NCBI GenBank assembly: GCA_035948415.1
Contig: DASZJD010000036.1
Span: forward strand, 1,034-65,033
DNA: 64,000 nucleotides
Reading direction: 5' to 3'
Source of the DNA: Acidimicrobiia bacterium
GTDB taxonomy: Bacteria; Actinomycetota; Acidimicrobiia; IMCC26256; PALSA-555
The notes under the pieces are model-generated. The model was not told the origin of the DNA, did not search any database, and saw only the letters and a program-made list of their open reading frames with translations. Both the position numbers and the translations under genes were made by a program. Positions 1,093 to 54,642 of this stretch are shown here, piece after piece; the first letter of the stretch is position 1; the number at the start of each line of letters is the position of its first letter.

Positions 1093-2343
1093 ATGCTCGA
1101 GCGTGTCCCCCTTCTCGAGAAGGAGCTCGACCACTACGCCGACGTCGTCGGCCCCGAGGTGGTCGCCGAGATCCACCGGGCGGCCGAGCCGCTGCAGGGG
1201 GCCCGGGTCCTGCACATCAGCGCCACCGCCTACGGGGGTGGCGTCGCCGAGCTGCTCGCCACCCACGTTCCGCTGCTGCGGAGCGTGGGCCTCGAATCGG
1301 AGTGGCAGGTGCTCCACGGCAGCGACGAGTTCTTCGCCATCACCAAGCAGGTGCACAACGCGCTGCAGGGCGCCGACATCGACTGGACGCCCCAGATGCA
1401 GCGCGTCTACCTGGAGCGGATCCTCGACAACGCGCTGCTCCTCGAGGACGGCTGGGACTTCGTCGTCGTCCACGACCCCCAGCCGGTGGCGCTGCTCCAC
1501 TTCCTTCGGGCCCACCCCGACCTGTCGGGGGACCGGACCCGATGGGTGTGGCGCTGCCACATCGACCTCACCGCCGCCGACCCAACGGTCTGGGAGTTCT
1601 TCCGGCCCTTCGTCGAGCTTCACGACGCGTCGGTGTGGACACTCGAGGAGTTCGTGCCGGCGTCGCTGAAGATGGAGCGCATCCTCCACCGACCGCCCTG
1701 CATCGACCCGCTGTCGGTGAAGAACCTCGACCTGGCCACCCCGTTCTGCATCGAGCTGACCCGCCAGTACGGGATCGACCCGGCGCGGCCGATCATGTGC
1801 CAGATCAGCCGCTACGACCCGTGGAAGGACCCGGTCGGCGTGATCGAGGCCTTCCGGCTGGTCCGCGAGCAGGTGCCGGACGCGCAGCTGCTCCTCGCCG
1901 GCTCGATGGCGACCGACGACCCCGAGGCGTTCCGAGTCTGGGAGGAGACCGAGCAGGCGCGCGCCGGCGACCGCGACATCTACCTCCTCTCGAACCTGCA
2001 CCAGGTGGGGTCGGTGCAGATCAACGCCTTCCAGCGCATCGCCACCGTCGTGGTCCAGAAGTCGTTGCGAGAGGGGTTCGGCCTCACCGTGAGCGAGGCA
2101 CTGTGGAAGGGCCGGCCTGTGGTCGGCGGCGACGCCGGCGGGATCAAGCTGCAGGTGATGGACGGCTACGACGGCTACCTCGTCCACGGGATCGAGGACT
2201 GCGCCCGGCGCGTCATCGACCTGCTCGCCGACCCGGTGGGCGCCGACGCCCTCGGCTCCCAGGGCCGCGAACACGTGCGGGCCAACTTCCTCGCCACCCG
2301 CGAGCTGCTCGACTGGCTGCAGCTGTTCGGCGACCTGCGGTGA
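1093..2343 (+). CDS. GT4 glycosyltransferase, TreT-like (trehalose glycosyltransferring synthase family)
   Basis: Motifs are HISATAYGGGVAELL ... FFAITKQVHNALQG at the N-terminus and EGFGLTVSEALWKGRPVVGG at the C-terminus. It starts at an ATG and its stop overlaps the otsA GTG. Confidence 0.7.
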   Translation: MLERVPLLEKELDHYADVVGPEVVAEIHRAAEPLQGARVLHISATAYGGGVAELLATHVPLLRSVGLESEWQVLHGSDEFFAITKQVHNALQGADIDWTPQMQRVYLERILDNALLLEDGWDFVVVHDPQPVALLHFLRAHPDLSGDRTRWVWRCHIDLTAADPTVWEFFRPFVELHDASVWTLEEFVPASLKMERILHRPPCIDPLSVKNLDLATPFCIELTRQYGIDPARPIMCQISRYDPWKDPVGVIEAFRLVREQVPDAQLLLAGSMATDDPEAFRVWEETEQARAGDRDIYLLSNLHQVGSVQINAFQRIATVVVQKSLREGFGLTVSEALWKGRPVVGGDAGGIKLQVMDGYDGYLVHGIEDCARRVIDLLADPVGADALGSQGREHVRANFLATRELLDWLQLFGDLR

Positions 2344-3719
2344 CGGTCGTCGTCTCCAACCGCGGACCGTACGAGTTCGCGGAGGACCCGGCGGGGACGT
2401 TCCGCGCCTACCCGGGCGCCGGCGGGCTGGCCAGCTCGCTGCGACCGCTGCTGCTCTCGGGCGTCGCCGGACCGGGCGGCGCGTGGCTGGCGGCCGCGGT
2501 CGGGGACGGCGACCGCGCCGCCGTCCGAGCCGGCGCCGCCGAGGTCGAAGGGATCCGGCTCACGCTCCTCGACCTCGACCCGGCCACCTACCGACTCGCC
2601 TACGACCTGGTGTCGAACGGGACCCTCTGGTTCCTCCACCACGGCCTCTTCGACCTGCCGCGGCGGCCCCGCTTCGACCACCGGTGGCTCGAGGCGTGGG
2701 CCGGCTACGAGACGGTGAACCGGGCCTTCGCCGACGCCGCCAGCGACCTCGCCGACCACGGCGACGTGGTGCTGGTGCAGGACCTGCACCTCACCCTGGT
2801 GCCGGGGCTGCTGCGGGAGCAGCGGCCAGATCTGCGTCTCGTCTACTTCACGCACACTGCGTTCTGCGGGCCGAACTCCATCCGAGTCCTCCCGACCGAG
2901 GCCGCGCGGGCCCTGTGCGCCTCCATGGCCGGCGTGCCGTGCGGGTTCCACGCCGCCCGCTGGGCGCGGGCCTACGAGTCGTCGGCGCGCGAGGTCCTCG
3001 GCGAGGGGGCGCGACTCGCGCCGAGCTTCGTGGCGCCGCTCGGACCGGACCCGGACGCGCTCGCCGCCATGGCCAGCAGCGACCCGGCGCGCGCCGCGCT
3101 CGTGGAGCTCGACACCCTCGTTGGTGACCGTGCCCTGCTGCTGCGCGTCGACCGGATGGACCCGTCGAAGAACGTCCTGCGTGGCTTCCAGGCCTACGAC
3201 CGGCTCCTCGAGACCGAGCCCACGTGGCGCGGGCGAGTGGTGTTCGTCGCCCGCCTCACGGCGTCCCGCGAGTCGCTCGCCGAGTACCAGGCCTACCGCC
3301 AGGAGGTCGAGCTGGCCGCGGCGCGCGTGAACGAGCGGTGGGCCACCCGGGACTGGCAGCCCGTCGTGCTCGACACGGGGGACGACTACCCGCGGACGAT
3401 CGCCGCCATGATCCGATACGACGTGCTGCTCGTGAACTCGGTGAAGGACGGCCTGAACCTGGTGGCGAAGGAGGGACCGCTCGTCAACCAGCGCGACGGC
3501 GTGCTGTGCCTGTCGCCGGACGCGGGGGCTTGGGACGAGCTCGGCCCCGCCGCGCTCGCGGTCCACCCGTTCGACATCGAGCAGGCGGCCGGGGCGCTGC
3601 ACGCGGCGCTGGCGATGCCAGCGGAGGAGCGGGCGCCCCGGGCGGCCCGACTGCGCGAGCTGGCGGGCCGGCGCACACCGATGTCGTGGTTCCAGGAGCA
3701 GCTCACGCGCGCGGCCTGA
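2340..3719 (+). CDS. otsA: alpha,alpha-trehalose-phosphate synthase (GT20)
   Basis: It occupies the C-terminal part of track ORF 279..3719. GTG 2340 gives VTVVVSNRGPYEF; other motifs are VLVQDLHLTLVP and VNSVKDGLNLVAKEG. Confidence 0.85.
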   Translation: MTVVVSNRGPYEFAEDPAGTFRAYPGAGGLASSLRPLLLSGVAGPGGAWLAAAVGDGDRAAVRAGAAEVEGIRLTLLDLDPATYRLAYDLVSNGTLWFLHHGLFDLPRRPRFDHRWLEAWAGYETVNRAFADAASDLADHGDVVLVQDLHLTLVPGLLREQRPDLRLVYFTHTAFCGPNSIRVLPTEAARALCASMAGVPCGFHAARWARAYESSAREVLGEGARLAPSFVAPLGPDPDALAAMASSDPARAALVELDTLVGDRALLLRVDRMDPSKNVLRGFQAYDRLLETEPTWRGRVVFVARLTASRESLAEYQAYRQEVELAAARVNERWATRDWQPVVLDTGDDYPRTIAAMIRYDVLLVNSVKDGLNLVAKEGPLVNQRDGVLCLSPDAGAWDELGPAALAVHPFDIEQAAGALHAALAMPAEERAPRAARLRELAGRRTPMSWFQEQLTRAA

Positions 3720-4491
3720 GCCCGGCCGTCAGCGCGCCGAGCAGCGCCGCCAGCCCCGCGGGCCCGCCCACGACGAGATCGGCCTCCTCGATGAGGCTCG
3801 GCGGGGCCTCGTCGGAGTCGACCGCGACGCGGATGCTGGTGAAGCCGGGGCGCTCGACGGCCCGGCGGGCGAGCGCGTCGAAGGCAGGCAGGTCGCCCGC
3901 GTCGTCGCCCGCGAAGACGCCCACGTGCACCCGCCGCTCGTCGAGCAGCGTCGTCATCGCTCCTCCCTTGTCGACCGGCACCGGCACCCGCAGCTCGGCC
4001 GACCTCCGACCGGCGCCGAGCGACAGGCCGTGCGCGCCCGCCAGCTGTTCGAGCGCGGGCCAGGCGGGCGCGGCCTCGGGTGCGACGCGCCAGTGCACCG
4101 TGAAAGCGACGGTGCCCTTCCGCTCGACGGACAGCCGCGGCCAGCGCCGCTCGGCTTCGCGTGCGGCCGCGACGACGGCGTCGACGAAGGGCGCGGCGCG
4201 CTCGTCGGTTACCGGCTCGCCCCCCACGAGCCGTTCGAGGCCGTAGACGCCGACCAGCTCGACACCGGGGACCGGCACCTGGGCCCGGAGGAAGGTGACG
4301 GGCCGCCCGCTCACCACGGCCACCAGGGCCAGCGGGGCGACGAGGGCGGCGAGGGCCTCGAGGGCGGCCGGCAGCGCGCGGGCGCGCGCCGGGTCGTCGA
4401 CGATCGGGGCGAGGGTGCCGTCGAAGTCGGTCACCACGGCGCTCGAGCCGGGATCGGCGGTGATCGGCGCGAGGGCGTCCGGGATCGTCAC
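3703..4491 (-). CDS. otsB: trehalose-phosphate phosphatase (HAD)
   Basis: It carries HAD motif I (VVTDFDGTLAP). It is convergent with otsA and overlaps its 3' end by 17 nt. Confidence 0.75.
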   Translation of the reverse strand: MTIPDALAPITADPGSSAVVTDFDGTLAPIVDDPARARALPAALEALAALVAPLALVAVVSGRPVTFLRAQVPVPGVELVGVYGLERLVGGEPVTDERAAPFVDAVVAAAREAERRWPRLSVERKGTVAFTVHWRVAPEAAPAWPALEQLAGAHGLSLGAGRRSAELRVPVPVDKGGAMTTLLDERRVHVGVFAGDDAGDLPAFDALARRAVERPGFTSIRVAVDSDEAPPSLIEEADLVVGGPAGLAALLGALTAGLRPRA

Positions 4492-7550: not shown

Positions 7551-8255
7551 GTGGCCGCCCAGCTGGTCGCGCTGTTCGGCGCCGGGGTGGCGTCGTTCCT
7601 CGCCCCGTGCATCGTGCCGCTGCTGCCCGCGTACCTCGGGATCATCGCCGGCGAGACCGCCGACGCTCGCGACCCGGCCCGGGCCGTGCCCGCCACCGTC
7701 GTGTTCGTGCTCGGCTTCGCGGTCGTGTTTGCGGGGCTCGGCGCCGTCGCGGGCCTGCTCGGGTCGTCGCTGCACGACGTCCAGCAGGCGGTGCAGCGGG
7801 TCGGCGGCGTGGTCGTGGCCGTGATGGGCCTGGCGCTCCTCGGCGTCCTCCGGGGACCCTTCGCACGGGAGCGCCGGCTGGTGCCACGGGTGCCGACCGG
7901 CCGGGGCCCGGCGCGCCCGTTCGTGGTCGGGGTCGCCTTCGGTGCCGCGTGGAGCCCGTGCGTCGGGCCGCTCCTGGCGGCGGCGCTCACCTTGGCCGCC
8001 CGCAGCGGCCAGGTCGGACGGGGCACCCTCCTGCTGCTGGCGTACGCGCTCGGAATCGGTGTGCCGTTCCTCCTCGCGGCATTAGGCCTGGCCTCCTTCC
8101 CGAACCTCGCCGAGCGCCTCCGGCGAGCGGGGCCGGTCCTCGAGCGCGTCGCCGGCGTGCTGCTCGTGATCCTTGGCGTCCTCCTCGCCACCGGGGCCTA
8201 CGGACACCTGACCTCGTACCTGGCGCGCTTCACGCCTGCGGTCGGCGGCCTCTGA
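7551..8255 (+). CDS. ccdA: cytochrome c biogenesis protein CcdA / DsbD-type thiol-disulfide transporter
   Basis: The GTG start abuts the preceding stop. It is polytopic with two conserved Cys: FLAPCIVPLLPAYLG and AAWSPCVGPLL. Confidence 0.85.
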   Translation: MAAQLVALFGAGVASFLAPCIVPLLPAYLGIIAGETADARDPARAVPATVVFVLGFAVVFAGLGAVAGLLGSSLHDVQQAVQRVGGVVVAVMGLALLGVLRGPFARERRLVPRVPTGRGPARPFVVGVAFGAAWSPCVGPLLAAALTLAARSGQVGRGTLLLLAYALGIGVPFLLAALGLASFPNLAERLRRAGPVLERVAGVLLVILGVLLATGAYGHLTSYLARFTPAVGGL

Positions 8256-8498: not shown

Positions 8499-9671
8499 GT
8501 GAGGAAGCCCGGACTGGACGGGTCGGCCTGGCCGTCCGAGCGTCAGGAGCTGCTGCTCCGCGCTGCGTTGCTCGATCGGGACGCCGCCGGCGCGGCATGG
8601 GCCGAGCTCGCCCCGGACCTGCACCCCGACCGGCCCGACGAGGACCCTGAGGTCCTGCGTCTCCTCCCGCTCGTGCACCACAACCTTCGTCGGGCCGGAA
8701 TCACGGACCCGCACGCGGATGCCCTTGGCGCCGCGACGCGCCAGAACTGGTACCGGACGCGCACCGTCCTGGCGGGCGCGGCGCCGGCGCTGTCGTGCCT
8801 CCTCGCGGCCGGCGTCCCGACGATGGTCCTGAAGGGTGCACCGCTGGCGCTCCGGTATTACGCCCACCCGTCCCTCCGCTTCTTGAGCGACGTCGACGTC
8901 CTCGTCCCGACCGCGGCGGCCGAACCGAGCCTGGACCTGCTCACGGCCGCCGGATGGCGCCGCCAGAGCCCGATCCCTCGCCGGCGCCTGTTCCGGGCCC
9001 GGCACTCCGAGAACCTCGTCCACGACGAGCACGGCAACCTCGACCTGCACTGGCGCCTCTCGATGCCCCTCGTGCTGGCCGCTGACCGCGAGCGCTCCGA
9101 GGAGGACTTCTGGCAGGCGGCCGAGCCGCTCACGGTGGCCGGGGTCGAGACCCTCGCCCCCTGCCCCGCCGACCTCGTCCTCCACGTCTGCGTCCACGGC
9201 GCGTGGACGCTGTCTGAGGCCACGGCGCGGTGGGTCGCCGACGCGATGACGGTCATCCGGTCGACCGGAGACCGGATGGACTGGGACCGTCTCACGACCC
9301 AGATCGCGCGGCGTCGCGTCGTCATCGGGCTCCGCAACGACCTGACCTACCTCGCACGGGACTTCGGCGCACCAGTGCCCGGAGCGGTGCTCGAGCGCCT
9401 CCGGCGCGCGCCGGTGAGCCGACGCGAGGCGCGGACGTACCGGTCGTTGACCCGGTCGCTCCCACGCGGCGGGCTCCGCGAGACCGCGGGGCGGTTCCGC
9501 GGCTACTGGCTGGAGAAGACGGGGGCGCTGCCGCGCTGGCGCCAGGTCCGCGAGCTACCCGGCCATCTGGAGGACCACTGGGGTCTCGCCCACGCCTGGG
9601 AGATCCCGCTCGAGGCCGTCGCTCGGCTCGCCCGTCACCTCGGCCTGGCCCGCAAGGCCGGGGCCGACTGA
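8499..9671 (+). CDS. uncharacterised nucleotidyltransferase family protein (NTP_transf_5 / PF14907-like)
   Basis: The motif is MVLKGAPLALRYYAHPSLRFLSDVDVLVPTAAAEPSLDLLTAAGWRR. It has a GTG start and is convergent with the hydroxylase genes. Confidence 0.7.
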   Translation: MRKPGLDGSAWPSERQELLLRAALLDRDAAGAAWAELAPDLHPDRPDEDPEVLRLLPLVHHNLRRAGITDPHADALGAATRQNWYRTRTVLAGAAPALSCLLAAGVPTMVLKGAPLALRYYAHPSLRFLSDVDVLVPTAAAEPSLDLLTAAGWRRQSPIPRRRLFRARHSENLVHDEHGNLDLHWRLSMPLVLAADRERSEEDFWQAAEPLTVAGVETLAPCPADLVLHVCVHGAWTLSEATARWVADAMTVIRSTGDRMDWDRLTTQIARRRVVIGLRNDLTYLARDFGAPVPGAVLERLRRAPVSRREARTYRSLTRSLPRGGLRETAGRFRGYWLEKTGALPRWRQVRELPGHLEDHWGLAHAWEIPLEAVARLARHLGLARKAGAD

Positions 9672-9678
9672 GCCGGGG

Positions 9679-9694
9679 CGCGCCGCGCGGCGCG
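9679..9694. terminator. perfect 16-nt GC palindrome between convergent genes (candidate bidirectional terminator hairpin)
   Basis: CGCGCCGCGCGGCGCG is its own reverse complement. It lies in the 32-nt gap between stops at 9671 (+) and 9704 (-). There is no U-tract. Confidence 0.3.
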
Positions 9695-9703
9695 AGCAGC
9701 CGG

Positions 9704-10618
9704 TCAGCGAGTGGCTTGGTGTCGCGCCCGGCGTAGCGATCGGACGCGCGCGACGCCGGCCGAGAGCTTCCGCCGGGCGCCCGACGACAGCATCCGGAAC
9801 CGGATCCAGGCGTGGAGCGCCCGAACTTTCGCCCGGTCCCGGTGCAGCCCTTCGCCCGGCGGGCGGGGACGGAGTCCGAGGCGACGGAGCCGGCTGTTCC
9901 ACGCGTGGACCTCCTGGGTGCGGTTCGCGGCCGCGGTCGTGACGCTGCACGACAGCGCCACCGAGACGTCGGTGCCGCCGATGACCCAGTGGAAGGCGTA
10001 GGGCGGGATGTAGAGCGCGTCGCCGGGCCCGAGCACGAAGCGGGTGACGCGCTCGGGGAGCCGGTCGAGGTTGAGGACCGCCGGCCCGTAGCGACGCTCG
10101 ACCTGCCGCTGGCCCTCGGAGGCGTCGCTGAACTCGCCGATGAAGAGCTCCTTCGTGCCCTCGAGCTGGAGCAGGACGTTGTGGTTGTGGTCGACGTGGG
10201 CTGGAACGACGGCGCCGGGCGACGCGATGAGCGCCAGCGACTCGCTCGGTCCCAACGTTCCCTCCGAGGTCGGGATCGCGGCTCGGATCGGCTCGACCCA
10301 GCGCTCGACGAGCGCGTCGTACGGCGTGGCCGTGTCGATGTGCCAGAGGACCATCCAGCAGTGGTTCTCCTCGATCCCCTCGATCACCGCTCGGGCCGAC
10401 AAGGGCAGCCGTTCGGCCTCACCGGTGGGCAGCACGAGGGGGAGGTCGGCGCGGTGGTGCTCGACGAGGTTGCCAGGATGGACCTCGGCGACCGCGGCCA
10501 GGGCCTCTCTCGACAACGACGGATGACCGCTCAGCCCGTGCCGCAGCTGGAGGGGGCGGCGCCCGATGGCGCCCCGCAGGGCTGCCGGGTCGAGTCCGAC
10601 CAACGCGTCCGTGGTCAT
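9704..10618 (-). CDS. JmjC/cupin 2-oxoglutarate oxygenase, FIH-like (paralog 2)
   Basis: ATG 10618 forms an ATGA overlap with the upstream stop. Motifs are VPAHVDHNHNVLLQLEGTKELFIGEF (HxD ... K) and the distal His in PPYAFHWV. Confidence 0.7.
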   Translation of the reverse strand: MTTDALVGLDPAALRGAIGRRPLQLRHGLSGHPSLSREALAAVAEVHPGNLVEHHRADLPLVLPTGEAERLPLSARAVIEGIEENHCWMVLWHIDTATPYDALVERWVEPIRAAIPTSEGTLGPSESLALIASPGAVVPAHVDHNHNVLLQLEGTKELFIGEFSDASEGQRQVERRYGPAVLNLDRLPERVTRFVLGPGDALYIPPYAFHWVIGGTDVSVALSCSVTTAAANRTQEVHAWNSRLRRLGLRPRPPGEGLHRDRAKVRALHAWIRFRMLSSGARRKLSAGVARVRSLRRARHQATR

Positions 10619-11490
10619 CGCCCAGCGCTCGCGGAGCGGCGTCGACGCAGCCAGCGGACGGCGAGGACGATCCTCGCCTTCGTCCAGTCCGCCAGCCGGG
10701 ACTCGGCCGGGCCCCGAGGACGGAGGCGCAGCTCGCGCAGATGACGGTTGGCGAGGTGGACCAGCTCGGCCCGCTCGCTGTCGACGGTGGAGAAGCTGGC
10801 GGACAGGGCGGTGGACGGCTCCGGCCCGCACCGCACCCAGTGGATGGTGTACGGCGGCAGGAAGAGCCCCTCACCCGGGCCCAGCTGGATGACCCGGACC
10901 TCGTCCGGCATCGCGGCGAGGTTGAGGTGGCGGCCGAAGTTGCGCTCGATCTCGGCGAGCTCACGGTCGGGGTCGGTGAAGGCCCCGATCATCACCTCCT
11001 TCGTGCCGACGAGCTGCAGCAGGAGGTTGTCGTGACGGTCGCAGTGGGCCGGCACCGTGGATCCGGGCGAGCCGCAGAACAGGGACGCGTCGCGTCGAAC
11101 CATGCCCCCGCCGTAGGAGCCGAGCACCCGCTCGGCCTGGTCCAGGGTCTCGCGAACGAGCGGTCCCACCTTGGGCGTGTGATGGACGTGATAGAGGCGG
11201 ACCGACAAGCAGCGTCGAGCGAGGTCCTCGAGGGCCGCGCCGCCGTCGGGGTACGGGAGCGCCCGAGGGGGTGGGCTGAGGACAGGGAGCTCTCCGTCGT
11301 TGACCGTGATCCAGGCTGACGGCAGGCGCCGTCCGATCTCCCCGAGGGCGGAGGGTTCGAAGTCCGCGAACGCTGGTGCCTGGTGCGCGAAGCGCAGCGG
11401 CTGCGCCGCAGCAGCAGCCCGGCGCAGCTCCGCGGGCTCGACGTCGAGCCACTGCCGGCGATCGACCGGGCCGAGGTGGTCCACGTTCAT
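10615..11490 (-). CDS. JmjC/cupin 2-oxoglutarate oxygenase, FIH-like (paralog 1)
   Basis: Motifs are VPAHCDRHDNLLLQLVGTKEVMIGAF and PPYTIHWV. ATG 11490 (MNVDHLG) follows a GAGG; the track start is GTG 11505. Confidence 0.7.
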   Translation of the reverse strand: MNVDHLGPVDRRQWLDVEPAELRRAAAAAQPLRFAHQAPAFADFEPSALGEIGRRLPSAWITVNDGELPVLSPPPRALPYPDGGAALEDLARRCLSVRLYHVHHTPKVGPLVRETLDQAERVLGSYGGGMVRRDASLFCGSPGSTVPAHCDRHDNLLLQLVGTKEVMIGAFTDPDRELAEIERNFGRHLNLAAMPDEVRVIQLGPGEGLFLPPYTIHWVRCGPEPSTALSASFSTVDSERAELVHLANRHLRELRLRPRGPAESRLADWTKARIVLAVRWLRRRRSASAGR

Positions 11491-11492
11491 CG

Positions 11493-11517
11493 CGGCGCGC
11501 CTCACCGCGGCGCGCCG
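11493..11517 (-). promoter_or_regulatory. GC hairpin over the RBS/start region of hydroxylase paralog 1
   Basis: GGCGCGCC (11494-11501) and GGCGCGCC (11509-11516) are self-complementary 8-mers separated by 7 nt, and the flanking C/G pair extends the stem to 9 bp. On the mRNA this sits immediately 5' of ATG 11490 and includes the GAGG. Confidence 0.4.
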
Positions 11518-11631
11518 GGTCTACTCCGGGTGCCAGGGCGCGGCCGGCCGCTCGACCACCGGTCCGGCGCGTGGCCCCGACCGCTCGGCCACCTCAGGTG
11601 GGGGAACGGCACCCGTCGTCGGATCGATCGG

Positions 11632-11754
11632 CTAGCGGTCGCTGGGCCGCCAGATCGGCGTGCAGCGAACTTGGCTGGCGCTGATCGTGTTGAGTGGCTC
11701 GGTGACCGGCGTCCGGTCTGCGACCGCCGGCGGCTCGTAGCTCTCATCTCGCAT
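11632..11754 (-). CDS. repeat peptide H (single unit, 40 aa)
   Basis: The product is MRDESYEPPAVADRTPVTEPLNTISASQVRCTPIWRPSDR. It is absent from the track because it is under 60 aa. GGGAG lies 11 nt upstream, and it overlaps ORF G by 11 nt. Confidence 0.5.
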   Translation of the reverse strand: MRDESYEPPAVADRTPVTEPLNTISASQVRCTPIWRPSDR

Positions 11755-11920
11755 CGTGGTCTCGCTCCCTCGTCGTCGCCTGAGGTCCTTCACGCCCGTT
11801 CTTCCTGCGCCACGCGAGGGTCAGCGGCGGCACCACGACACTGTGATTGATCGTGTTCAGCGGCTCGGTCACCGACGTCCGCCCCACGACCGCCGGTCGC
11901 TCATAGCTCTCGTCGTGCAT
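11744..11920 (-). CDS. repeat peptide G (single unit + divergent tail, 58 aa)
   Basis: The product is MHDESYERPAVVGRTSVTEPLNTINHSVVVPPLTLAWRRKNGREGPQATTRERDHDAR. The SD is GGGAGGAGGGAG, upstream of ATG 11920. It is absent from the track. Confidence 0.5.
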   Translation of the reverse strand: MHDESYERPAVVGRTSVTEPLNTINHSVVVPPLTLAWRRKNGREGPQATTRERDHDAR

Positions 11921-11972
11921 GGCTCTCCCTCCTCCCTCGCCGTCGTCCGTCCGGGGACGGTTCTCGGACCGC

Positions 11973-12224
11973 CTACGAGTCGTGGCGCGTCGGCCTCCAC
12001 GCCGGGGTGAGCGGCTGGCTGCTGGTGGCCGCGTTCAGCGGCTCGCTGACCGAGGTGCGCTCCACGACCTCCGGCGACTCGTACGCCAACGCGGTGGGCT
12101 CGTCCCCGTCGTGCGGGCGCCAAACCGGGGTCCGCACGCCGCCGCTCGTGCTCACGACGTTGAGTGGTTCGGACACCGGCGTCCGGTCGTCGACCCGCGG
12201 CCGCTCGTAGCGTTCTCCTCGCAT
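11973..12224 (-). CDS. repeat peptide F (two units, 83 aa)
   Basis: Track ORF. The units are YERPRVDDRTPVSEPLNVVSTSGGVRTPVWR and YESPEVVERTSVSEPLNAATSSQPLTPAWR. The SD is GGGAGGAG. Confidence 0.65.
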   Translation of the reverse strand: MRGERYERPRVDDRTPVSEPLNVVSTSGGVRTPVWRPHDGDEPTALAYESPEVVERTSVSEPLNAATSSQPLTPAWRPTRHDS

Positions 12225-12264
12225 CCAACTCCTCCCGCTGCTGGCACCGATGCCGGGCGAGCAC

Positions 12265-12519
12265 CTAGTGCTCGCGCTTCGACCTCCAGGCCGGAGTCTT
12301 GAACACCTGGCTGCTGCTCGCCGCGTTCAGCGGCTCGCTGACCGGGGTCTGCCCCGCGACGCGGGGCGGCTCGTAGGCCGCGGGCTCGTCGCCCCGGGCG
12401 GACCCGTGCCAGGCCGGGGTGGCAAACGGAACGCCGCCGCTGGTGTTCACCGCGTTGAGGGGCTCGGACACCGACGTTCGGTCGTCGACCCGGGGCCGCT
12501 CGTAGCTCGCTTCTCCCAT
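12265..12519 (-). CDS. repeat peptide E (two units, 84 aa)
   Basis: The internal ATG 12519 (MGEASYERP...) is preceded by AAGGAGGA; the track ORF extends to 12543. It has two repeat units. Confidence 0.65.
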   Translation of the reverse strand: MGEASYERPRVDDRTSVSEPLNAVNTSGGVPFATPAWHGSARGDEPAAYEPPRVAGQTPVSEPLNAASSSQVFKTPAWRSKREH

Positions 12520-12564
12520 CGGATTCCTCCTTCGTACTCGCAATGGTGGCCGCAGCCGCGTCGG

Positions 12565-12825
12565 CTACAGCTGGTCTGGCTTCGTCCTCCACGTCGGTGT
12601 CGGTACCGAGTTGCTGTTCGTCAACGTGTTCAGTGGTTCGCTGACCGGCGTGTGCTCCTCGACCCCCGGTCGCTCGTAAGCCTCGACCGCGGGCTCGTCC
12701 CCCGCGGCACGGGACCGCCAGGCCGGGGTGAACGCCACACCCTGGCTGGTGTTGATCACGTTGAGCGGCTCGGTGACCGTCGTCCGGTCCTCGACCCGGG
12801 GTCGCTGGTAGCGGTCATCCTGCAT
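12565..12825 (-). CDS. repeat peptide D (two units, 86 aa)
   Basis: Track ORF. The product is MQDDRYQRPRVEDRTTVTEPLNVINTSQGVAFTPAWR...YERPGVEEHTPVSEPLNTLTNSNSVPTPTWR. The SD is GGGAGGA. Confidence 0.65.
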   Translation of the reverse strand: MQDDRYQRPRVEDRTTVTEPLNVINTSQGVAFTPAWRSRAAGDEPAVEAYERPGVEEHTPVSEPLNTLTNSNSVPTPTWRTKPDQL

Positions 12826-13120
12826 TGCCGTCCTCCCTCGTCGATGGCGGCCGCCTGCGGTCGGGGTCCGCCGTTCTCCATAACGGGGTGCCGGCGAGCG
12901 GGTTGCTGTTCGTCACCGCGTTCAGTGGCTCTCGGACCGGTGTCTGCCCTGCGACCCCCGGTGGCTCGTAGGCCTCGGCCACGGGCTCGTCCCCCGCGGC
13001 GTGCGACCGCCACGCGGGCGTGATGTTGATGACGCTGTGGCTGGTGTTGATCGTGTTGAGCGGCTCGGTGACCGTCGTCCGGTCCTCGACCCGCGGTCGC
13101 TCGTAGCGGTCATCGTCCAT
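12815..13120 (-). CDS. repeat peptide C (two units + extended tail, 101 aa)
   Basis: Track ORF. It has two units, and its tail runs 11 nt into ORF D. The SD is GGGAGGA. Confidence 0.65.
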   Translation of the reverse strand: MDDDRYERPRVEDRTTVTEPLNTINTSHSVINITPAWRSHAAGDEPVAEAYEPPGVAGQTPVREPLNAVTNSNPLAGTPLWRTADPDRRRPPSTREDGNAG

Positions 13121-13147
13121 CGCAGTCCTCCCGTCTGGGCCCGCCCG

Positions 13148-13423
13148 CTAGCGGTCGGGCTCGTCGTCCGGTTGCGTCGTCCGCCACGCCGGGGTGTTTG
13201 TGAGCGGATTGCTGTTGGACACCGCGTTCAGCGGATCGCTGACCGGTGTCTGCCCCGCGACCCCGGGTGGCTCGTAGGCCTCGGCCACAGGCCCGTCCCC
13301 CGCGGCGCGCGACCGCCAGGCCGGCGTTTCGGGAAGGCCATGGCTGGTGTTGATCGTGTTGAGCGGCTCGGTGACCGTCGTCCGGTCCTCGACCCGCGGT
13401 CGCTCGTAGCGGTGATCGTCCAT
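13148..13423 (-). CDS. repeat peptide B (two units, 91 aa)
   Basis: Track ORF. The product is MDDHRYERPRVEDRTTVTEPLNTINTSHGLPETPAWR...YEPPGVAGQTPVSDPLNAVSNSNPLTNTPAWRTTQPDDEPDR. The SD is GGGAGGA. Confidence 0.7.
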   Translation of the reverse strand: MDDHRYERPRVEDRTTVTEPLNTINTSHGLPETPAWRSRAAGDGPVAEAYEPPGVAGQTPVSDPLNAVSNSNPLTNTPAWRTTQPDDEPDR

Positions 13424-13450
13424 CGCAGTCCTCCCGTCTGGGCCCGCCCG

Positions 13451-13708
13451 CTAGCGGTCGGGCTCGTCGTCCGGTTGCGTCGTCCGCCACGCCGGGGTGA
13501 CCGTGAGCGGATTGCTGTTGGACACCGCGTTCAGCGGATCGCTGACCGGCGTGTGCGCCGCGACCGCCGGCGCGTCGTAGTCGTCGTCCCCCGCGCCCGA
13601 CCGCCAGGCCGGCGTGGTGGGAAGGCCATGGCTGGTGTTGATCGTGTTGAGCGGCTCGGTGACCGTCGTCCGGTCCTCGACCCGCGGTCGCTCGTAGTGG
13701 TCGTGCAT
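13451..13708 (-). CDS. repeat peptide A (two units, 85 aa)
   Basis: The internal ATG 13708 (MHDHYERP...) is preceded by GGAGGAGGAG; the track ORF extends to 13837. It has two units and the same C-terminus as B. Confidence 0.7.
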   Translation of the reverse strand: MHDHYERPRVEDRTTVTEPLNTINTSHGLPTTPAWRSGAGDDDYDAPAVAAHTPVSDPLNAVSNSNPLTVTPAWRTTQPDDEPDR

Positions 13709-14037
13709 CGCAGCTCCTCCTCCCTGGGACGCCCACTGGTGGTCGTCCGATGCCCTCTGTCTCGGGGTGAGGAACGCGGCTCGCGTCCGGTCTCGGCGTT
13801 CTCCGGGCCGGGAACAGGGGCGTGCTCGTCCTCGCACGCCACCCGTCGCCCCCGACGGTGCCCCACCCTTCCCCGTGCCCCGCCCTTCCGGGTTCGTCGA
13901 TCGAGCTCGACGTCCGCCCGCCGCTATCGCCGGCGTTGCCGCCCTTGCCCGACGCTTGCCCTCCGCCGCATCGATCGGGACTTCACTACGCTGCGTGACA
14001 CTAGAGGCCGCGGATCCCTCAGGGCAAGGACCAATCG

Positions 14038-14988
14038 GTGCCAGATCTCGATCGCGTCGTCACGCTGGGTGACATCTCGTTACGCCTCGTGGCCGCGGAC
14101 GCGGCCGGGGCCGCCGCGCTCGAGCTCAGCGTGGGCCCCGCGGGCGTGTCCGCCCCGGGGGCTGCGGCCCCCGTCGGGACGGTGCGCGCCGGGGGGGCCG
14201 CGCCGACGCTACCCGAGCGACCGCCGGATCAGGTCTACGACGACCGCCGGGTCTGGCTCGAGCACGACGACCTCCTGTTCTTGGACCTGACCGGCGTCGT
14301 CGCCCGGTCCGGGCCCACGACGGCGACGATCGGCGGCGGTCCGGGCCGCGAGCTCGCCGCCCTCGGGATCCGGCGGCTGTTCCTCTGCGCGGTGGGCCAC
14401 CTGCTCGGCTTCCAGGACCGGCTCCTCGTCCACGGGGGCGCGGTCGTCGTGGACGGCCGGACCGTCCTTGTCCTCGGAGAGAGTGGGAGGGGCAAGTCGA
14501 CGGTCGCCCTGGCCGCCCTCGAGCAGGGGTGGCCGGTCCTGTCGGACGACCTGGTGATCCTGCGGCGCGCCGAGGACGGCATCGACGTCGCCGGCGTGCC
14601 CCGGCCACCGACGGTCCCGACGGACCTGCAGGCCGAGGTGGAGGGCGCGGCGCGACCGGTCGCCGACGACCCGCGGGGTCGGGCCCAGCTCGCCCCCGAC
14701 GTGCTCACGGGCGGCTTCCACCGCGTCGGCGCGGTCGTCGTCGTGGGCCACGGGAGCGAGCCGCTCGGCGAGCTAGCGCCGGTCGCCGGGCGTCACGTCC
14801 ACCTGGTGCTCGTGGGCTCGTTCCCCGCCGCGAGCCACCCCGACCAGCTCCGGCGGGCGCATCCGGTGTTCGCGGAGCTGACGCGGCTGCCCTCCTGGGC
14901 GCTGCGGCACGGCACCGACGCCGCTCGCCGTCTGGCGTCGACGGCCGCGGCGATTCGCGGGCTCAGCCTGGCGGCGACCCGTCGCTGA
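14038..14988 (+). CDS. HPr kinase/phosphorylase C-terminal-like P-loop kinase (HprK-related)
   Basis: It has a Walker A motif in VLVLGESGRGKSTVALAALEQGWPVLSDDLVIL. The GTG start is divergent from the peptide array, and the 3' end overlaps the PqqD-like gene by 26 nt. Confidence 0.65.
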   Translation: MPDLDRVVTLGDISLRLVAADAAGAAALELSVGPAGVSAPGAAAPVGTVRAGGAAPTLPERPPDQVYDDRRVWLEHDDLLFLDLTGVVARSGPTTATIGGGPGRELAALGIRRLFLCAVGHLLGFQDRLLVHGGAVVVDGRTVLVLGESGRGKSTVALAALEQGWPVLSDDLVILRRAEDGIDVAGVPRPPTVPTDLQAEVEGAARPVADDPRGRAQLAPDVLTGGFHRVGAVVVVGHGSEPLGELAPVAGRHVHLVLVGSFPAASHPDQLRRAHPVFAELTRLPSWALRHGTDAARRLASTAAAIRGLSLAATRR

Positions 14989-15238
14989 GCAGCCCGAGGC
15001 TGGACAGCTCGTCGAGGAACGACCGCACGTCCGCCTCGACCTGCGCCGCCGGCATTGACGGATAGCGGTCGAGGACCACGCGGCACAGGTCCGGGAGGTC
15101 TCGGCGACCGTCGAGCGCGTCCCACACCAGCGTGCCGACCGCGTTCAGGGTGATGAGCTCGGTTCCGGCAGGATCGACCAGGACCGCTCGGTCTTCGACG
15201 AGGTCCGACACCACGTCGGGGTTTCGGCCCGGCGCCAC
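14963..15238 (-). CDS. PqqD family protein (RiPP recognition element-like)
   Basis: The motif is VLVDPAGTELITLNAVGTLVWDALDGRRDLPDLCRVVLDRYPSMPAAQVEADVRSFLDELSSLGLL. The start is uncertain: GTG at 15238, 15214 or 15211, or ATG 15316. Confidence 0.65.
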   Translation of the reverse strand: MAPGRNPDVVSDLVEDRAVLVDPAGTELITLNAVGTLVWDALDGRRDLPDLCRVVLDRYPSMPAAQVEADVRSFLDELSSLGLLSDGSPPG

Positions 15239-15381
15239 GGGCGCGCATCGTATCGAACGCGCGACGGGAGCCGTTCCCCGAACCGGTCCGTCGTGTCGCC
15301 CGGACCGGTGTCGCACGCTTCCCCCGACCGCGGCGCGGCCGCGCGGTCGTGGCGGCGGCGCCGCTCGGCGAGGGGGTGGGG

Positions 15382-15454
15382 AGCCGGGTGTCGGGATCGA
15401 ACCGACGGCCTCTGCTTTACAAGAGCAGCGCTCTGCCAGCTGAGCTAACCCGGC
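15382..15454 (-). tRNA. tRNA-Thr (anticodon TGT)
   Basis: Folded by hand. The acceptor stem is GCCGGGT/ACCCGGC, the D arm GCTC-AGCTGGCA-GAGC, the anticodon stem CTGCT/AGCAG with loop CTTGTAA, and the T arm GTCGG-TTCGATC-CCGAC. The discriminator is T and CCA is not encoded. Confidence 0.9.
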
Positions 15455-53208: not shown

Positions 53209-54642
53209 GTGGTCGTGGCCGTGCGCCAAGTACAGGTTGAGGCCCTCCCACCCGATCGCCTCCAGGCTCTGATTGGCCCCGAACGTGCCGAGCGGTTCCG
53301 CGAGACCACTGCTGCCGCCCGGGCCTCGCTGGGCCGTCGCCGGGTCATCAACGTGAACTCCACCGCCCGCGGCGGCGGTGTGGCCGAGCTCCTCGAGAGC
53401 CTCCTTCCATACGCGCGTGGGGTCGGCATCGACGCCAGCTGGCTGGTCATCGACGGCGGCCCAGAGTTCTTCGAGATCACGAAGCGCTTGCACAACCGGA
53501 TCTACGGCGTTCGTGGTGACGCCGGCTCGCTTGGGGGAGCCCAACGCGCTGCCTACGAGGAGACACTGCGCTCGAACCGTGCGGACCTCCTGGACCTGAT
53601 CCGACCCGGCGACATCGTCGTGCTCCATGACCCGCAGGCCGCGGGCCTCACCGACGCGGCCAGACGTGCGGGAGCAATCGTCATCTGGCGCTGTCACATC
53701 GGCCGCGACGCCCCGAACGCCTACTCGGACGAGGGCTGGGACTTTCTCCGTCCGTACGTCGAAGACGCCGACGCGTACGTCTTCAGTCGCGCTGCCTTCA
53801 TCCCTCGGTGGGCCGATCGGACGCGCACGGCCACGATCCCGCCGTCGATCGATCCGTTCTCGGCCAAGAACCGCGCCTTGGACCCGGCGACGACGCTGGC
53901 GATCCTGCAGTTCGCTGGTCTGCTCGCCGCCGCCGCCGACCCGCCAGCCCTGGCGGTTCCGCGACCAGACGGCTCACCTGTCCGACTCGATCGACGCGCC
54001 GACACCCTGGCGACCGGTCCAGCCCCGCCCGCCGACGCTCCCCTCGTGGTTCAGGTCTCCCGATGGGATCGCACGAAGGACATGCCTGGTGTGATGCATG
54101 GGTTCGTTGAACACCTCGACGGTCATCGAGAGGCCCATCTCGCCCTCGTCGGCCCGGCGGTGGACGGCGTCGAGGATGACCCGGAGAGCGGCGCCGTGCT
54201 GGACGAGTGCCTCGGGTTCTGGGGCCAGCTGTCCCCGGGGGCGCGGAGGCGCGTCCACCTGGCGTGCCTTCCTCTCGACGACCCCGACCAGCAAGCCACG
54301 ATCGTGAACGCCCTCCAGCGACACGCCGCCGTCGTGACCCAGAAGAGCCTGGTCGAGGGGTTCGGCCTGACCGTCACCGAGGCCTTGTGGAAACAGCGGC
54401 CGGTGGTCGCCAGCCGCGTCGGCGGGATCGGCGACCAGATCCGAGACCACGAGCAGGGCCTGCTGCTCGACGACCCCGCCGACCTGACGGCCTTCGGCGC
54501 CGCGGTGCGGCTCCTCCTCGACGATCACAGCTTGGCGACGCGTCTAGCCGAGGCGGGTCACCAGCGCGCTCGGGCGGAGTTTCTCCCCGACCGGCACCTG
54601 GAGCGGTACGCGGCCCTCTTCGCGACCTTGGCAGAGCCGTGA
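53209..54642 (+). CDS. GT4 glycosyltransferase, TreT-like (paralog of 1093..2343)
   Basis: Motifs are INVNSTARGGGVAELL ... FFEITKRLHNRIYG and EGFGLTVTEALWKQRPVVAS. These are the same motifs found in the first copy. Confidence 0.7.
   Translation: MVVAVRQVQVEALPPDRLQALIGPERAERFRETTAAARASLGRRRVINVNSTARGGGVAELLESLLPYARGVGIDASWLVIDGGPEFFEITKRLHNRIYGVRGDAGSLGGAQRAAYEETLRSNRADLLDLIRPGDIVVLHDPQAAGLTDAARRAGAIVIWRCHIGRDAPNAYSDEGWDFLRPYVEDADAYVFSRAAFIPRWADRTRTATIPPSIDPFSAKNRALDPATTLAILQFAGLLAAAADPPALAVPRPDGSPVRLDRRADTLATGPAPPADAPLVVQVSRWDRTKDMPGVMHGFVEHLDGHREAHLALVGPAVDGVEDDPESGAVLDECLGFWGQLSPGARRRVHLACLPLDDPDQQATIVNALQRHAAVVTQKSLVEGFGLTVTEALWKQRPVVASRVGGIGDQIRDHEQGLLLDDPADLTAFGAAVRLLLDDHSLATRLAEAGHQRARAEFLPDRHLERYAALFATLAEP

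Follow-up and report, generated by a model that had tools for sequence, protein, structure and literature searches.

A rare actinobacterial gene cassette resembling linear polyphosphorylated peptide pathways, with JmjC oxygenases and tandem-repeat precursor peptides

Introduction

An array of small repeat-peptide genes flanked by a kinase-like gene, a nucleotidyltransferase, two oxygenases and a PqqD-like gene raises the question of whether these genes form one peptide-modification system, and if so of which kind. The array lies in a 64-kb stretch of DNA from a high-GC actinobacterium (hereafter the window, meaning the whole stretch analysed). The original prediction was that it is not a lasso peptide cluster but a distinct, undescribed system in which a kinase, a nucleotidyltransferase and hydroxylases guided by a RiPP recognition element (RRE) decorate multi-repeat peptides. 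Domain content, translation signals, conservation in related metagenome loci (designated L001, L002 and so on) and similarity to characterised pathways were analysed.

Results

Window positions 8499-15238 contained the gene set, and all four domain assignments of the original prediction were confirmed by Pfam profile searches. The gene at 8499-9671 (+; 390 aa) matched PF14907 (NTP_transf_5; E 3e-38) and is the counterpart of PsmN/LppN-type NTP transferases, with invariant LKG ... R-x3-D-x-D ... H in the alignment. Orthologues were found in L001, L002, L012, L003, L005, L010/13, L011, L014 and L015.

Two oxygenase genes followed on the minus strand. The ORF at 9704-10831 (-) matched JmjC_2/Cupin_8 (E 1.6e-9), its real start being the ATG at 10618, so that JmjC-2 spans 9704-10618 (304 aa). 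The ORF at 10615-11505 (-) also matched JmjC_2/Cupin_8 (E 1e-7), with a likely start at the ATG at 11490 (JmjC-1; 10615-11490; 291 aa). The start of JmjC-2 and the stop of JmjC-1 share an ATGA overlap at 10615-10618. The HVD...H triad was readable in JmjC-2, orthologues of which follow JmjC-1 in L001, L012, L019, L005, L006, L008 and L009. In JmjC-1, H149-x-D151, K164 and H217 were invariant in 13 homologues; its AF2 model had a pLDDT of 87.5, and the nearest folds were NO66/MINA53/YcfD, YxbC, FIH and TYW5.

The gene at 14038-14988 (+; 316 aa) matched Hpr_kinase_C with 31.1 bits, just under the gathering score of 33.3, and only over the P-loop stretch (aa 128-180). Orthologues carried precomputed PF27840 (ScmC) annotations. 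Residues H132, G147, S149-G150-x-G152-K153-S154 and D170-D171 were invariant in 16 homologues. The AF2 model (pLDDT 92) was closest in fold to PEP carboxykinases, whereas by sequence the nearest solved structure was HPrK/P. The ORF at 14963-15316 (-) matched PqqD (E 4e-17), with a likely start at the GTG at 15238 giving a discrete RRE of 91 aa (14963-15238), the length called in JGI contigs. Its nearest solved structures were the lasso RRE TbiB1 (5v1u; E 1.7e-3) and, marginally, LppB (9x8z; E 0.14). The kinase and PqqD genes overlap convergently by 26 nt, and in nearly all related loci PqqD orthologues are convergent with the kinase or the NTase. All NCBIfam equivalogs scored far below their cut-offs, including those of the HPr-rel-A system (TIGR04352, 32.8 bits against 200; TIGR04353, 18.3 against 35).

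Eight co-directional peptide genes occupied the minus strand between 11632 and 13708: A (13451-13708; 85 aa), the first gene of the peptide/JmjC transcription unit, B (13148-13423; 91 aa), C (12815-13120; 101 aa), D (12565-12825; 86 aa), E (12265-12519; 84 aa) and F (11973-12224; 83 aa), with two units each, and G (11744-11920; 58 aa) and H (11632-11754; 40 aa; YEPPAVADRTPVTEPLNTISAS..TPIWR), with one unit each. All eight start with ATG 6-9 nt after a GGAGG/GGGAGG motif, and independent gene callers called the same ORFs on three JGI metagenome contigs, including H as a 40-aa gene in contig L017. Together the peptides carry 14 copies of one unit, and the DNA holds 13-14 copies of an 82-nt leader-coding repeat. 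Each unit consists of an N-terminal recognition segment, Y-E-x-P-x-[V/I]-x3-T-x-[V/I]-x2-P-L-[N/I]-[G/T/A], followed by a short variable core. The 329-bp divergent intergenic region between peptide A and the kinase (13709-14037), presumed to be a promoter region, matched no Rfam family and no sigma-70 consensus, although the consensus scan is not suited to high-GC actinobacteria.

No lasso cyclase, B2 peptidase, radical SAM, YcaO, ATP-grasp or exporter gene was found among 20 further window ORFs scanned, which did not include every ORF of the window and all looked like housekeeping genes.

The gene set and the peptide motif recurred, with unrelated neighbours, in at least 12 other, independent Actinomycetota/Acidimicrobiia metagenome loci (L001, L002, L012, L003, L005, L006, L008, L010/13, L011, L014, L015 and L019), and are not a product of chance. 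Enzyme genes co-occurred with homologous peptide ORFs in every related locus with enough sequence. The peptide genes were always accompanied by a discrete PqqD RRE and one or two JmjC oxygenases, nearly always by an HprK-like kinase and usually by a PF14907 nucleotidyltransferase; no PF14907 gene was found in L006, L008 or L009, and L009 also lacked the kinase. Among the genes annotated in these loci, no lasso cyclase, B2 protease, radical SAM or YcaO gene was seen. The absence of an exporter, as originally predicted, held for the window among the ORFs scanned, but one close relative (L001) has an ABC exporter next to the nucleotidyltransferase, and L009 has FtsX/ABC genes downstream. One relative encodes a JmjC-PF14907 fusion protein (P0147), on a contig that also carries a 336-aa gene on the opposite strand and three small ORFs. 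More distant members of this JmjC subfamily sit in non-RiPP contexts.

Across 45 units from 14 loci the register was Y1-x-x-P4-x-[V/I]6...[V/I/L]12..P15-L16, with Y1, P4, [VI]6, [VIL]12 and L16 each in 45/45 units, P15 in 43/45 and T10 in 39/45. A Ser lay at positions 19-23 in 44/45 units, against about 47% expected from the composition of the tails; one unit (L019) has Thr instead. Multi-repeat peptides were a lineage-specific elaboration, seen in the near-identical relatives of the window and independently in L008, and most relatives have single-unit peptides of 33-45 aa.

The five loci or groups with two JmjC genes (window/L001/L002/L012/L019, L005/L006, L008, L009) have cores with P-x-W-R, PQW or AAF-R, whereas loci with one JmjC gene and a complete context (L003, L010/13/14, L011, L015) have short cores without the motif. 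This association rests on only about five independent clades, and a neighbour-joining tree did not show one universally retained JmjC paralogue.

Discussion

The cassette is best explained, with fairly good confidence, as a leader-guided (RiPP-type) peptide-modification cassette, an Actinomycetota/Acidimicrobiia relative of the linear polyphosphorylated peptide (LPP) pathways reported only from Bacillota (Popov et al., Nat Commun 2026;17:6633, PMC13381572). No modification has been observed, and every chemical step is inferred by analogy. The description of the system as undescribed in the original prediction is only half true: the JmjC pair, the lack of the SpI peptidase and exporter, the tandem units and the phylum are new, but otherwise there is precedent in LPP, whose precursor motif is YxxPxVLxHQxIxFETxxS and whose kinase places 1-4 phosphates on core Ser3.

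In the inferred mechanism, the RRE binds the YxxPx[V/I] motif of every unit, as lasso B1 and LppB do, and presents it to the enzymes; binding of a YERPRVEDRTTVTEPLN peptide by the RRE is a prediction of this reading. The kinase would then put one or more phosphates on the near-universal Ser 19-23 residues after the Tyr, in the window the Ser of ..NTS.. or ..SNS.., which is the positional equivalent of LPP core Ser3. The invariant Walker A GxSGxGKS and the DD pair, corresponding to the PsmK D158/D159 metal site (PMC6993621), agree with this step, although in paeninodin and pseudomycoidin the kinase targets a C-terminal Ser, and only the L005/L006 peptides all end in Ser, so that the site may differ between clades.

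The nucleotidyltransferase, whose DxD motif corresponds to PsmN D134/D136, would elaborate that phosphate with a hexose or a nucleotide-derived group, as PsmN does in pseudomycoidin, where phosphorylation is followed by addition of hexose to the phosphate (PMC6993621). This chemistry is uncertain even in the model system, as deletion of LppN had no detectable effect in the LPP study. The two Fe(II)/2-oxoglutarate JmjC enzymes, with HxD...H and, in JmjC-1, a Lys 15 residues after the first His, are inferred to hydroxylate side-chain carbons in the core, one of them probably at or near the distal P-x-[W/F]-[R] motif, found only in loci with two JmjC genes. A precedent is CanE, an Fe/2OG hydroxylase that acts on the linear precursor and is stimulated by the RRE CanB1 (PMC9266682). 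With no leader peptidase or exporter found among the window ORFs scanned, the end product would be either the full-length decorated peptide or a fragment released by host proteases.

Other readings were less well supported. That the peptides are intact intracellular small proteins (regulatory, storage or scaffold peptides) switched by phosphorylation, nucleotidylation and hydroxylation is unlikely but possible: most loci have no leader peptidase and no exporter, the window array sits among housekeeping genes (cysS, ispDF, carD, disA, clpC), the nearest characterised JmjC folds are protein hydroxylases acting on ribosomal proteins and transcription factors, and the function of LPP itself is unknown. 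However, a variable core, a conserved leader, multiple paralogous precursors and a discrete RRE form the standard RiPP signature, transporter genes are present in L001 and L009, and the patchy and rare distribution is typical of accessory and conflict genes. It is very unlikely, too, that the HprK-like and PF14907 proteins are not a kinase and a phosphate-elaborating enzyme here, with the JmjC enzymes first creating a hydroxyl that is then phosphorylated or nucleotidylated, or with the P-loop protein serving only as an ATP-dependent scaffold, as may be the case for ScmC. The P0147 fusion suggests a tight coupling between oxidation and nucleotidyl transfer, the kinase hits the ScmC family only weakly, and LppN was silent on its own, but the Walker A and DD motifs of proven peptide kinases are invariant, the conserved Ser sits at the LPP phospho-site position, and LPP clusters phosphorylate without any JmjC enzyme.

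A tailoring sub-cluster of a lasso pathway, with the macrolactam synthetase and B2 protease encoded elsewhere in the genome and the peptides as lasso precursors, is very unlikely. The YxxPx[V/I] leader motif, the B1-like RRE, the HprK-like kinase, the PF14907 NTase and an Fe/2OG hydroxylase are all known accessories of lasso clusters, but neither a cyclase nor a B2 gene was seen among the genes annotated in at least 12 related loci with up to 10 kb of flank each, or among the window ORFs scanned. The cores lack lasso features, with no Thr at -2 followed by G/A/S/C and no Asp/Glu at core positions 7-9, those of the L011/L013/L015 clade are only 4-8 residues long (for example ASGPN and ISAS), tandem leader-core units are unknown in lasso precursors, and LPP shows that this enzyme set can work without a cyclase.

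Comparison with known systems

As in LPP clusters, a discrete PqqD-type RRE, an HprK-like kinase and an uncharacterised NTP transferase occur without a macrolactam cyclase, together with one to several precursors with a conserved N-terminal Y-x-x-P-x-V...hydrophobic(12)...Ser (about position 19) motif and variable C-termini, and both systems appear derived from lasso-type recognition machinery. The cassette differs from LPP in having no SpI (SipW-like) leader peptidase, no MsbA-like exporter in the window (among the ORFs scanned), one or two added JmjC Fe/2OG oxygenases, different leader positions 7-18 (ExRTxVxEPLN against LxHQxIxFET), precursors with 2-3 tandem leader-core units in some lineages, and hosts outside Bacillota, to which the authors describe LPP as restricted.

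With the paeninodin/pseudomycoidin-type phosphorylated lasso clusters (PadeK/ThcoK/PsmK kinases, PsmN NTP transferase), the cassette shares an HprK-like kinase with the DD metal site, a PsmN-type nucleotidyltransferase, a B1-like RRE and a [Y/W]xxP leader, but no cyclase C or B2 protease was found among the ORFs scanned, and there is no lasso core. As in canucin A biosynthesis, an Fe/2OG oxygenase is encoded with an RRE and presumably acts on the leader-bearing linear peptide; here the enzymes are JmjC_2/Cupin_8 (ribosomal-oxygenase/FIH-like) and are core conserved genes of the cassette, not an occasional accessory. The HPr-rel-A system, which the original prediction had mentioned, and the SynChlorMet cassette (ScmC/ScmD) both pair an HprK-related P-loop protein with a PqqD-family chaperone, but the cassette is neither of them, given the equivalog scores and no radical SAM partners among the genes scanned. 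Finally, the JmjC enzymes match the protein hydroxylases NO66, MINA53, YcfD/RoxA, FIH and B. subtilis YxbC in predicted fold, HxD...H triad and 2OG-binding Lys spacing, but with a sequence identity of only about 15-20%, and they are shorter (about 290 aa), lack the dimerisation and winged-helix extensions of ribosomal oxygenases, and are associated with RiPP-like peptides.

Gene content and organization

The window was about 74% G+C and actinobacterial in gene content. The cassette lies between ccdA (7551-8255) and a tRNA-Thr(TGT) gene (15380-15454, minus strand) directly beside the PqqD gene, and is wedged inside an otherwise conserved housekeeping stretch (rlmB/SpoU, cysS, ispF, ispD, carD), which is compatible with insertion at a tRNA. 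Pfam confirmed every domain call of the original prediction: PF14907 NTP_transf_5 at 8499-9671 (plus strand; E 3e-38), JmjC_2/Cupin_8 on both minus-strand JmjC genes, Hpr_kinase_C at 14038-14988 (plus strand; 31.1 bits, marginally below the 33.3 gathering score and with only the P-loop part matching), and PqqD at 14963-15238 (minus strand; E 4e-17). The ATGA stop/start overlap of the JmjC genes is at 10615-10618, the kinase and PqqD genes overlap convergently by 26 nt, and the divergent spacer is 329 bp.

The eight peptide ORFs (A to H; 85, 91, 101, 86, 84, 83, 58 and 40 aa) all begin with ATG, 6-9 nt downstream of a GGAGG-type Shine-Dalgarno sequence. Independent gene callers called the same ORFs on three JGI metagenome contigs that carry the same array beside cysS and a SpoU methylase gene. 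The array contains 13-14 copies of an 82-nt repeat at DNA level, and 14 copies of one unit at protein level, with two units in six peptides and one unit in two peptides. There is strong AT skew (-0.35) over 12001-14000, against about 0 elsewhere, which fits the repeated, strand-biased coding sequence.

Twenty further ORFs were scanned, which did not cover every ORF of the window; all looked like housekeeping genes (lysS, panC, folP, disA, ftsH, trehalose-related genes and others), and none was a lasso cyclase, B2 peptidase, radical SAM, YcaO or ATP-grasp enzyme. Two TreT-like trehalose synthase/GT4 genes and a trehalose-phosphatase gene lie in the same window (1093-2343, plus strand; 3703-4491, minus strand; 53209-54642, plus strand), as does a 612-aa protein of unclear function with DUF362 and a weak ferritin-like domain (59961-61799, minus strand). 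The sigma-70 and terminator scan and Rfam found nothing in the cassette apart from the flanking tRNA-Thr, and PADLOC gave no anti-phage defence hit for any of the five proteins.

Occurrence in other loci

The peptides were very rare, forming 10 clusters among 5.8 billion proteins, all close relatives; JmjC-1 and the kinase had about 15 and about 16 close clusters, respectively. Contigs fetched for these proteins, together with a scan of 185,579 species genomes with a JmjC-1 profile, gave at least 12 further loci (designated by L numbers), all from Actinomycetota/Acidimicrobiia MAGs or metagenomes, and the cassette has so far been seen only in uncultured organisms. The same genes recurred in them, namely small peptides, one or two JmjC genes, the kinase, the PqqD gene and usually the PF14907 gene, whereas everything around them differed: MoaC/PhoU genes and a guanylate cyclase in L012, an amino-acid permease and a two-component system in L013, glycosyltransferases in L015, and a multicopper oxidase in L002. 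Among the genes that could be annotated, none of these loci had a cyclase, a protease, or a radical SAM or YcaO gene. L001 has an ABC exporter (ABC_membrane+ABC_tran) next to the nucleotidyltransferase (NTase), and L009 has FtsX/ABC genes downstream, although no kinase or NTase was detected in L009.

A convergent 3'-end overlap of 20-29 nt between the kinase gene and its downstream neighbour was conserved across loci (window 14963-14988; L001 1354-1382; L002 3283-3311; L012 10920-10948; L013 10914-10933), the neighbour being PqqD in the window's clade and the NTase in L013. In L002 (6026-8451) the JmjC-2 and NTase genes were broken into several ORFs or tblastn fragments, reflecting either assembly frameshifts or a decaying cassette.

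A word-indexed protein search suggested that the JmjC family had only 15 members, but a full HMMER profile search of 1.84 billion representative proteins found 138 JmjC clusters at E<=1e-30. One of them (P0147, 637 aa; JGI 3300050821) is a natural JmjC-PF14907 fusion, a Rosetta-stone link between hydroxylase and nucleotidyltransferase; its 4-kb contig also carries a 336-aa gene on the opposite strand and three small ORFs of 52, 41 and 46 aa. More distant members sampled from the subfamily lay in unrelated contexts, such as GNAT/methyltransferase or HipA, or stood alone. Some of them (proteins P0070, P0140, P0146, P0160 and P0187, and L020 3540-4607) are fused to, or adjacent to, Acetyltransf_6 (PF13480) GNAT domains, and in L020 the neighbours are a methyltransferase and a beta-helix protein and no RRE is present, which looks like a second, unrelated context for these oxygenases. 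The cassette is therefore one sub-clade of this JmjC subfamily, not the whole of it.

Precursor peptides

Forty-five units from 14 loci were put in register on the Tyr. Conservation was Y1 in 45/45 units, E2 in 39/45, P4 in 45/45, V/I at position 6 in 45/45, T10 in 39/45, V/I/L at position 12 in 45/45, P15 in 43/45, L16 in 45/45, N/I/V at position 17 in 44/45, and G/T/A at position 18 in 39/45. After position 18 the sequence was variable, with the exception of a Ser within positions 19-23 in 44/45 units, where about 47% would be expected from the composition of the tails; position 22 was Ser in 28/45 units. The pN/pS ratio among the 14 leader-coding repeats was 0.60, too weak to argue selection on its own, and that argument is carried instead by the invariant positions and the conservation across loci.

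Three clades had cores with a distal aromatic motif, T-P-x-W-R in the window clade, N-P-Q-W in L005/L006, and S-A-A-F-R in L008/L009. The L010/L011/L013/L015 clade and L003 had cores of only 4-8 residues, such as ASGPN, VSGPN, GSSAR, ISAS, MSGPPVVD and TVSGMLL, with one longer exception in L010/L013 that also lacks the aromatic motif. All seven precursors of L005 (9389-9956) and L006 (8907-9894) end in a C-terminal Ser preceded by an acidic tail (..NPQWNDEDQS), which is the position phosphorylated in paeninodin-type lasso peptides; no PF14907 gene was found in L006. The second precursor in L001 (2624-2722, plus strand) stops right after the recognition segment (MQDKAYEAPAVEDRTSVEEPLNIISSSDRKLQ*), and could be a truncated pseudo-precursor, a frameshift, or a genuinely short core. 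In L012 a fourth precursor-like ORF (11695-11958, plus strand; ..YEAPAVEDRTSVDEPLNTARTISDGQVTTPKWRRK..) lies on the far side of the PqqD gene, apart from the three co-directional precursors.

Multi-unit precursors occurred in the window's lineage and, independently, in L008 (2 and 3 units), whereas most relatives had single-unit peptides of 33-45 aa. A conserved recognition segment, a hypervariable core and several paralogues form the standard RiPP precursor signature, and Y-x-x-P-x-[V/I] is the motif that lasso B1 RREs bind (PMC13381572).

Enzymes

In the kinase, H132, G147, S149-G150-x-G152-K153-S154 and D170-D171 were invariant in 16 homologues, and the DD pair corresponds to the metal-binding D158/D159 whose mutation inactivates PsmK (PMC6993621). 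By sequence the nearest solved proteins were HPrK/P, and the AF2 model (pLDDT 92) was closest in fold to PEP carboxykinases, a superfamily to which the HprK catalytic domain probably also belongs. In the NTase, LKG...R-x3-D-x-D...H was invariant in eight orthologues, and the DxD corresponds to PsmN D134/D136 (PMC6993621); a PDB sequence search with the NTase found nothing.

In JmjC-1, the H149-x-D151...H217 triad and K164 were invariant; K164 lies 15 residues after the first His, a spacing that appears to be shared with FIH (H199/K214). The model (pLDDT 87.5) matched NO66 (Foldseek E about 1e-12), MINA53, YcfD, YxbC, FIH (about 1e-10) and TYW5, of which the characterised protein-modifying enzymes (NO66, MINA53, YcfD, FIH) probably hydroxylate side-chain C3 of His, Arg, Asn or Asp. 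The same triad was readable in JmjC-2. A neighbour-joining tree of the JmjC paralogues separated two types, but did not show a single type retained in all one-JmjC loci, and a model of one universal plus one accessory hydroxylase was therefore dropped. The solved structures nearest to the RRE were the lasso RRE TbiB1 (E 1.7e-3), then LppB (9x8z; E 0.14, a marginal similarity) and PbaB1 (E 0.77).

NCBIfam gave nothing for the NTase, the JmjC proteins or the peptides, and only sub-threshold hits for the kinase and the RRE. Literature searches on PF14907 and on ScmC/SynChlorMet/HPr-rel-A were uninformative.

Inferred mechanism

It is inferred that the RRE docks on YxxPx[V/I] of each unit, that the kinase phosphorylates the Ser at positions 19-23, perhaps more than once, with the C-terminal Ser as an alternative site in L005/L006, that the PF14907 enzyme elaborates the phosphate, and that the JmjC enzymes hydroxylate core residues. 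Every locus with two JmjC genes had cores with the distal aromatic motif, and every complete locus with one JmjC gene lacked it, which suggests that one paralogue serves that motif, although the link rests on only about five independent clades and the tree does not identify a universally retained paralogue. An RRE-guided peptide-modifying cassette of this composition is proposed with fairly high confidence; that the Ser at positions 19-23 is the phosphorylation site is about as likely as not, and what the NTase attaches and which residues the JmjC enzymes hydroxylate are less certain still. The inference in the original prediction, of an RRE-guided kinase, nucleotidyltransferase and hydroxylases decorating multi-repeat peptides outside a lasso cluster, was supported with four corrections: a sister family has now been published, so that the cassette is not wholly undescribed; it is not the HPr-rel-A system, which had been raised as a related cassette; the repeats are lineage-specific; and some relatives do have an exporter, the absence of which had been noted for the window.

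A more radical interpretation, considered unlikely, is that this is a separate RiPP class of Actinomycetota/Acidimicrobiia in which JmjC oxidation is the class-defining step and not just decoration. A JmjC enzyme might create the hydroxyl that the kinase and nucleotidyltransferase then build on, as hinted at by the JmjC-NTase fusion. Alternatively, oxidative alpha-hydroxylation at the conserved P-L-[I/N]-[G/T/A] junction might cleave the backbone, which would replace the missing leader peptidase and release many cores from tandem leader-core units.

If the preferred reading is right, the module of RRE, HprK kinase and PF14907 is not confined to Bacillota or to lasso-associated loci, and can be recombined with JmjC oxygenases in place of a signal-peptidase-type leader protease, which would give a new family of phospho- and hydroxy-decorated linear peptides. 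It would also provide a natural example of tandem units of recognition motif plus core within one precursor that are read by a discrete RRE. The cassette also offers a compact five-enzyme system for finding out what PF14907 nucleotidyltransferases actually attach, a question left open by both the pseudomycoidin study and the LPP study.

Comparison with known systems

The RRE and the leader agree with those of lasso peptide clusters, as YxxPx[V/I], which conforms to the lasso leader motif [Y/W]xxPx[L/V/I/F/A], was present in 45/45 units. However, neither the ATP-dependent macrolactam synthetase (Asn-synthetase-like, protein C) nor the transglutaminase-like leader peptidase B2 was found in the cassette, in the 20 other window ORFs scanned, or in the annotated flanks of L001, L002, L012, L013, L014 and L015. 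A core starting with G/A/S/C after Thr(-2), with an Asp/Glu acceptor at positions 7-9, was not a consistent pattern in the 45 units, and a lasso-core reading of the peptides was rejected. Membership of HPr-rel-A, GAK (HprK_rel_B) and SynChlorMet was ruled out, as all equivalogs failed their cut-offs by wide margins: HprK_rel_A (TIGR04352) scored 32.8 bits against 200, PqqD_rel_X (TIGR04353) 18.3 against 35, ScmC 16.4 against 125, and ScmD 34.1 against 100, and no radical SAM gene (ScmE/F) was present among the ORFs scanned.

Precedents for individual steps exist in PsmK/PsmN, which phosphorylate a Ser and then add hexose to the phosphate (PMC6993621), and in CanE, an Fe/2OG hydroxylase that acts on the linear precursor and is stimulated by the RRE. 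The closest precedent for the cassette is the linear polyphosphorylated peptides (LPP) defined in Bacillota by Popov et al. (Nat Commun 2026; PMC13381572). These have 1-3 precursors with the N-terminal consensus YxxPxVLxHQxIxFETxxS, the kinase adds 1-4 phosphates to core Ser3 (Tyr+18), the leader is cut after T(-1), and deleting the NTase had no visible effect; the family is said to be restricted to Bacillota, a phylogenetic limit that the present reading, if right, would contradict.

The window's units share the register with LPP precursors at Y1, P4, V6, a hydrophobic residue at 12, and a Ser at about 19-22, although positions 7-18 differ and the match to the LPP motif as a whole, with its phospho-Ser at core position 3, remains uncertain. 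The cassette also shares the discrete RRE and the HprK-like kinase of the five LPP core genes and apparently a third, the NTP transferase, whose equivalence to LppN rests on the published description. It lacks the archaeal-type signal peptidase I (SipW-like) leader peptidase LppS, the gene used to define the family, no peptidase gene appearing in the cassette or in any annotated related locus, and no MsbA-like exporter was seen in the window among the ORFs scanned. It adds JmjC oxygenases, which are as conserved as the kinase across the related loci, occurs in a different phylum, and can concatenate units. It is therefore treated as working like an LPP pathway, but not as a member of the family as defined.
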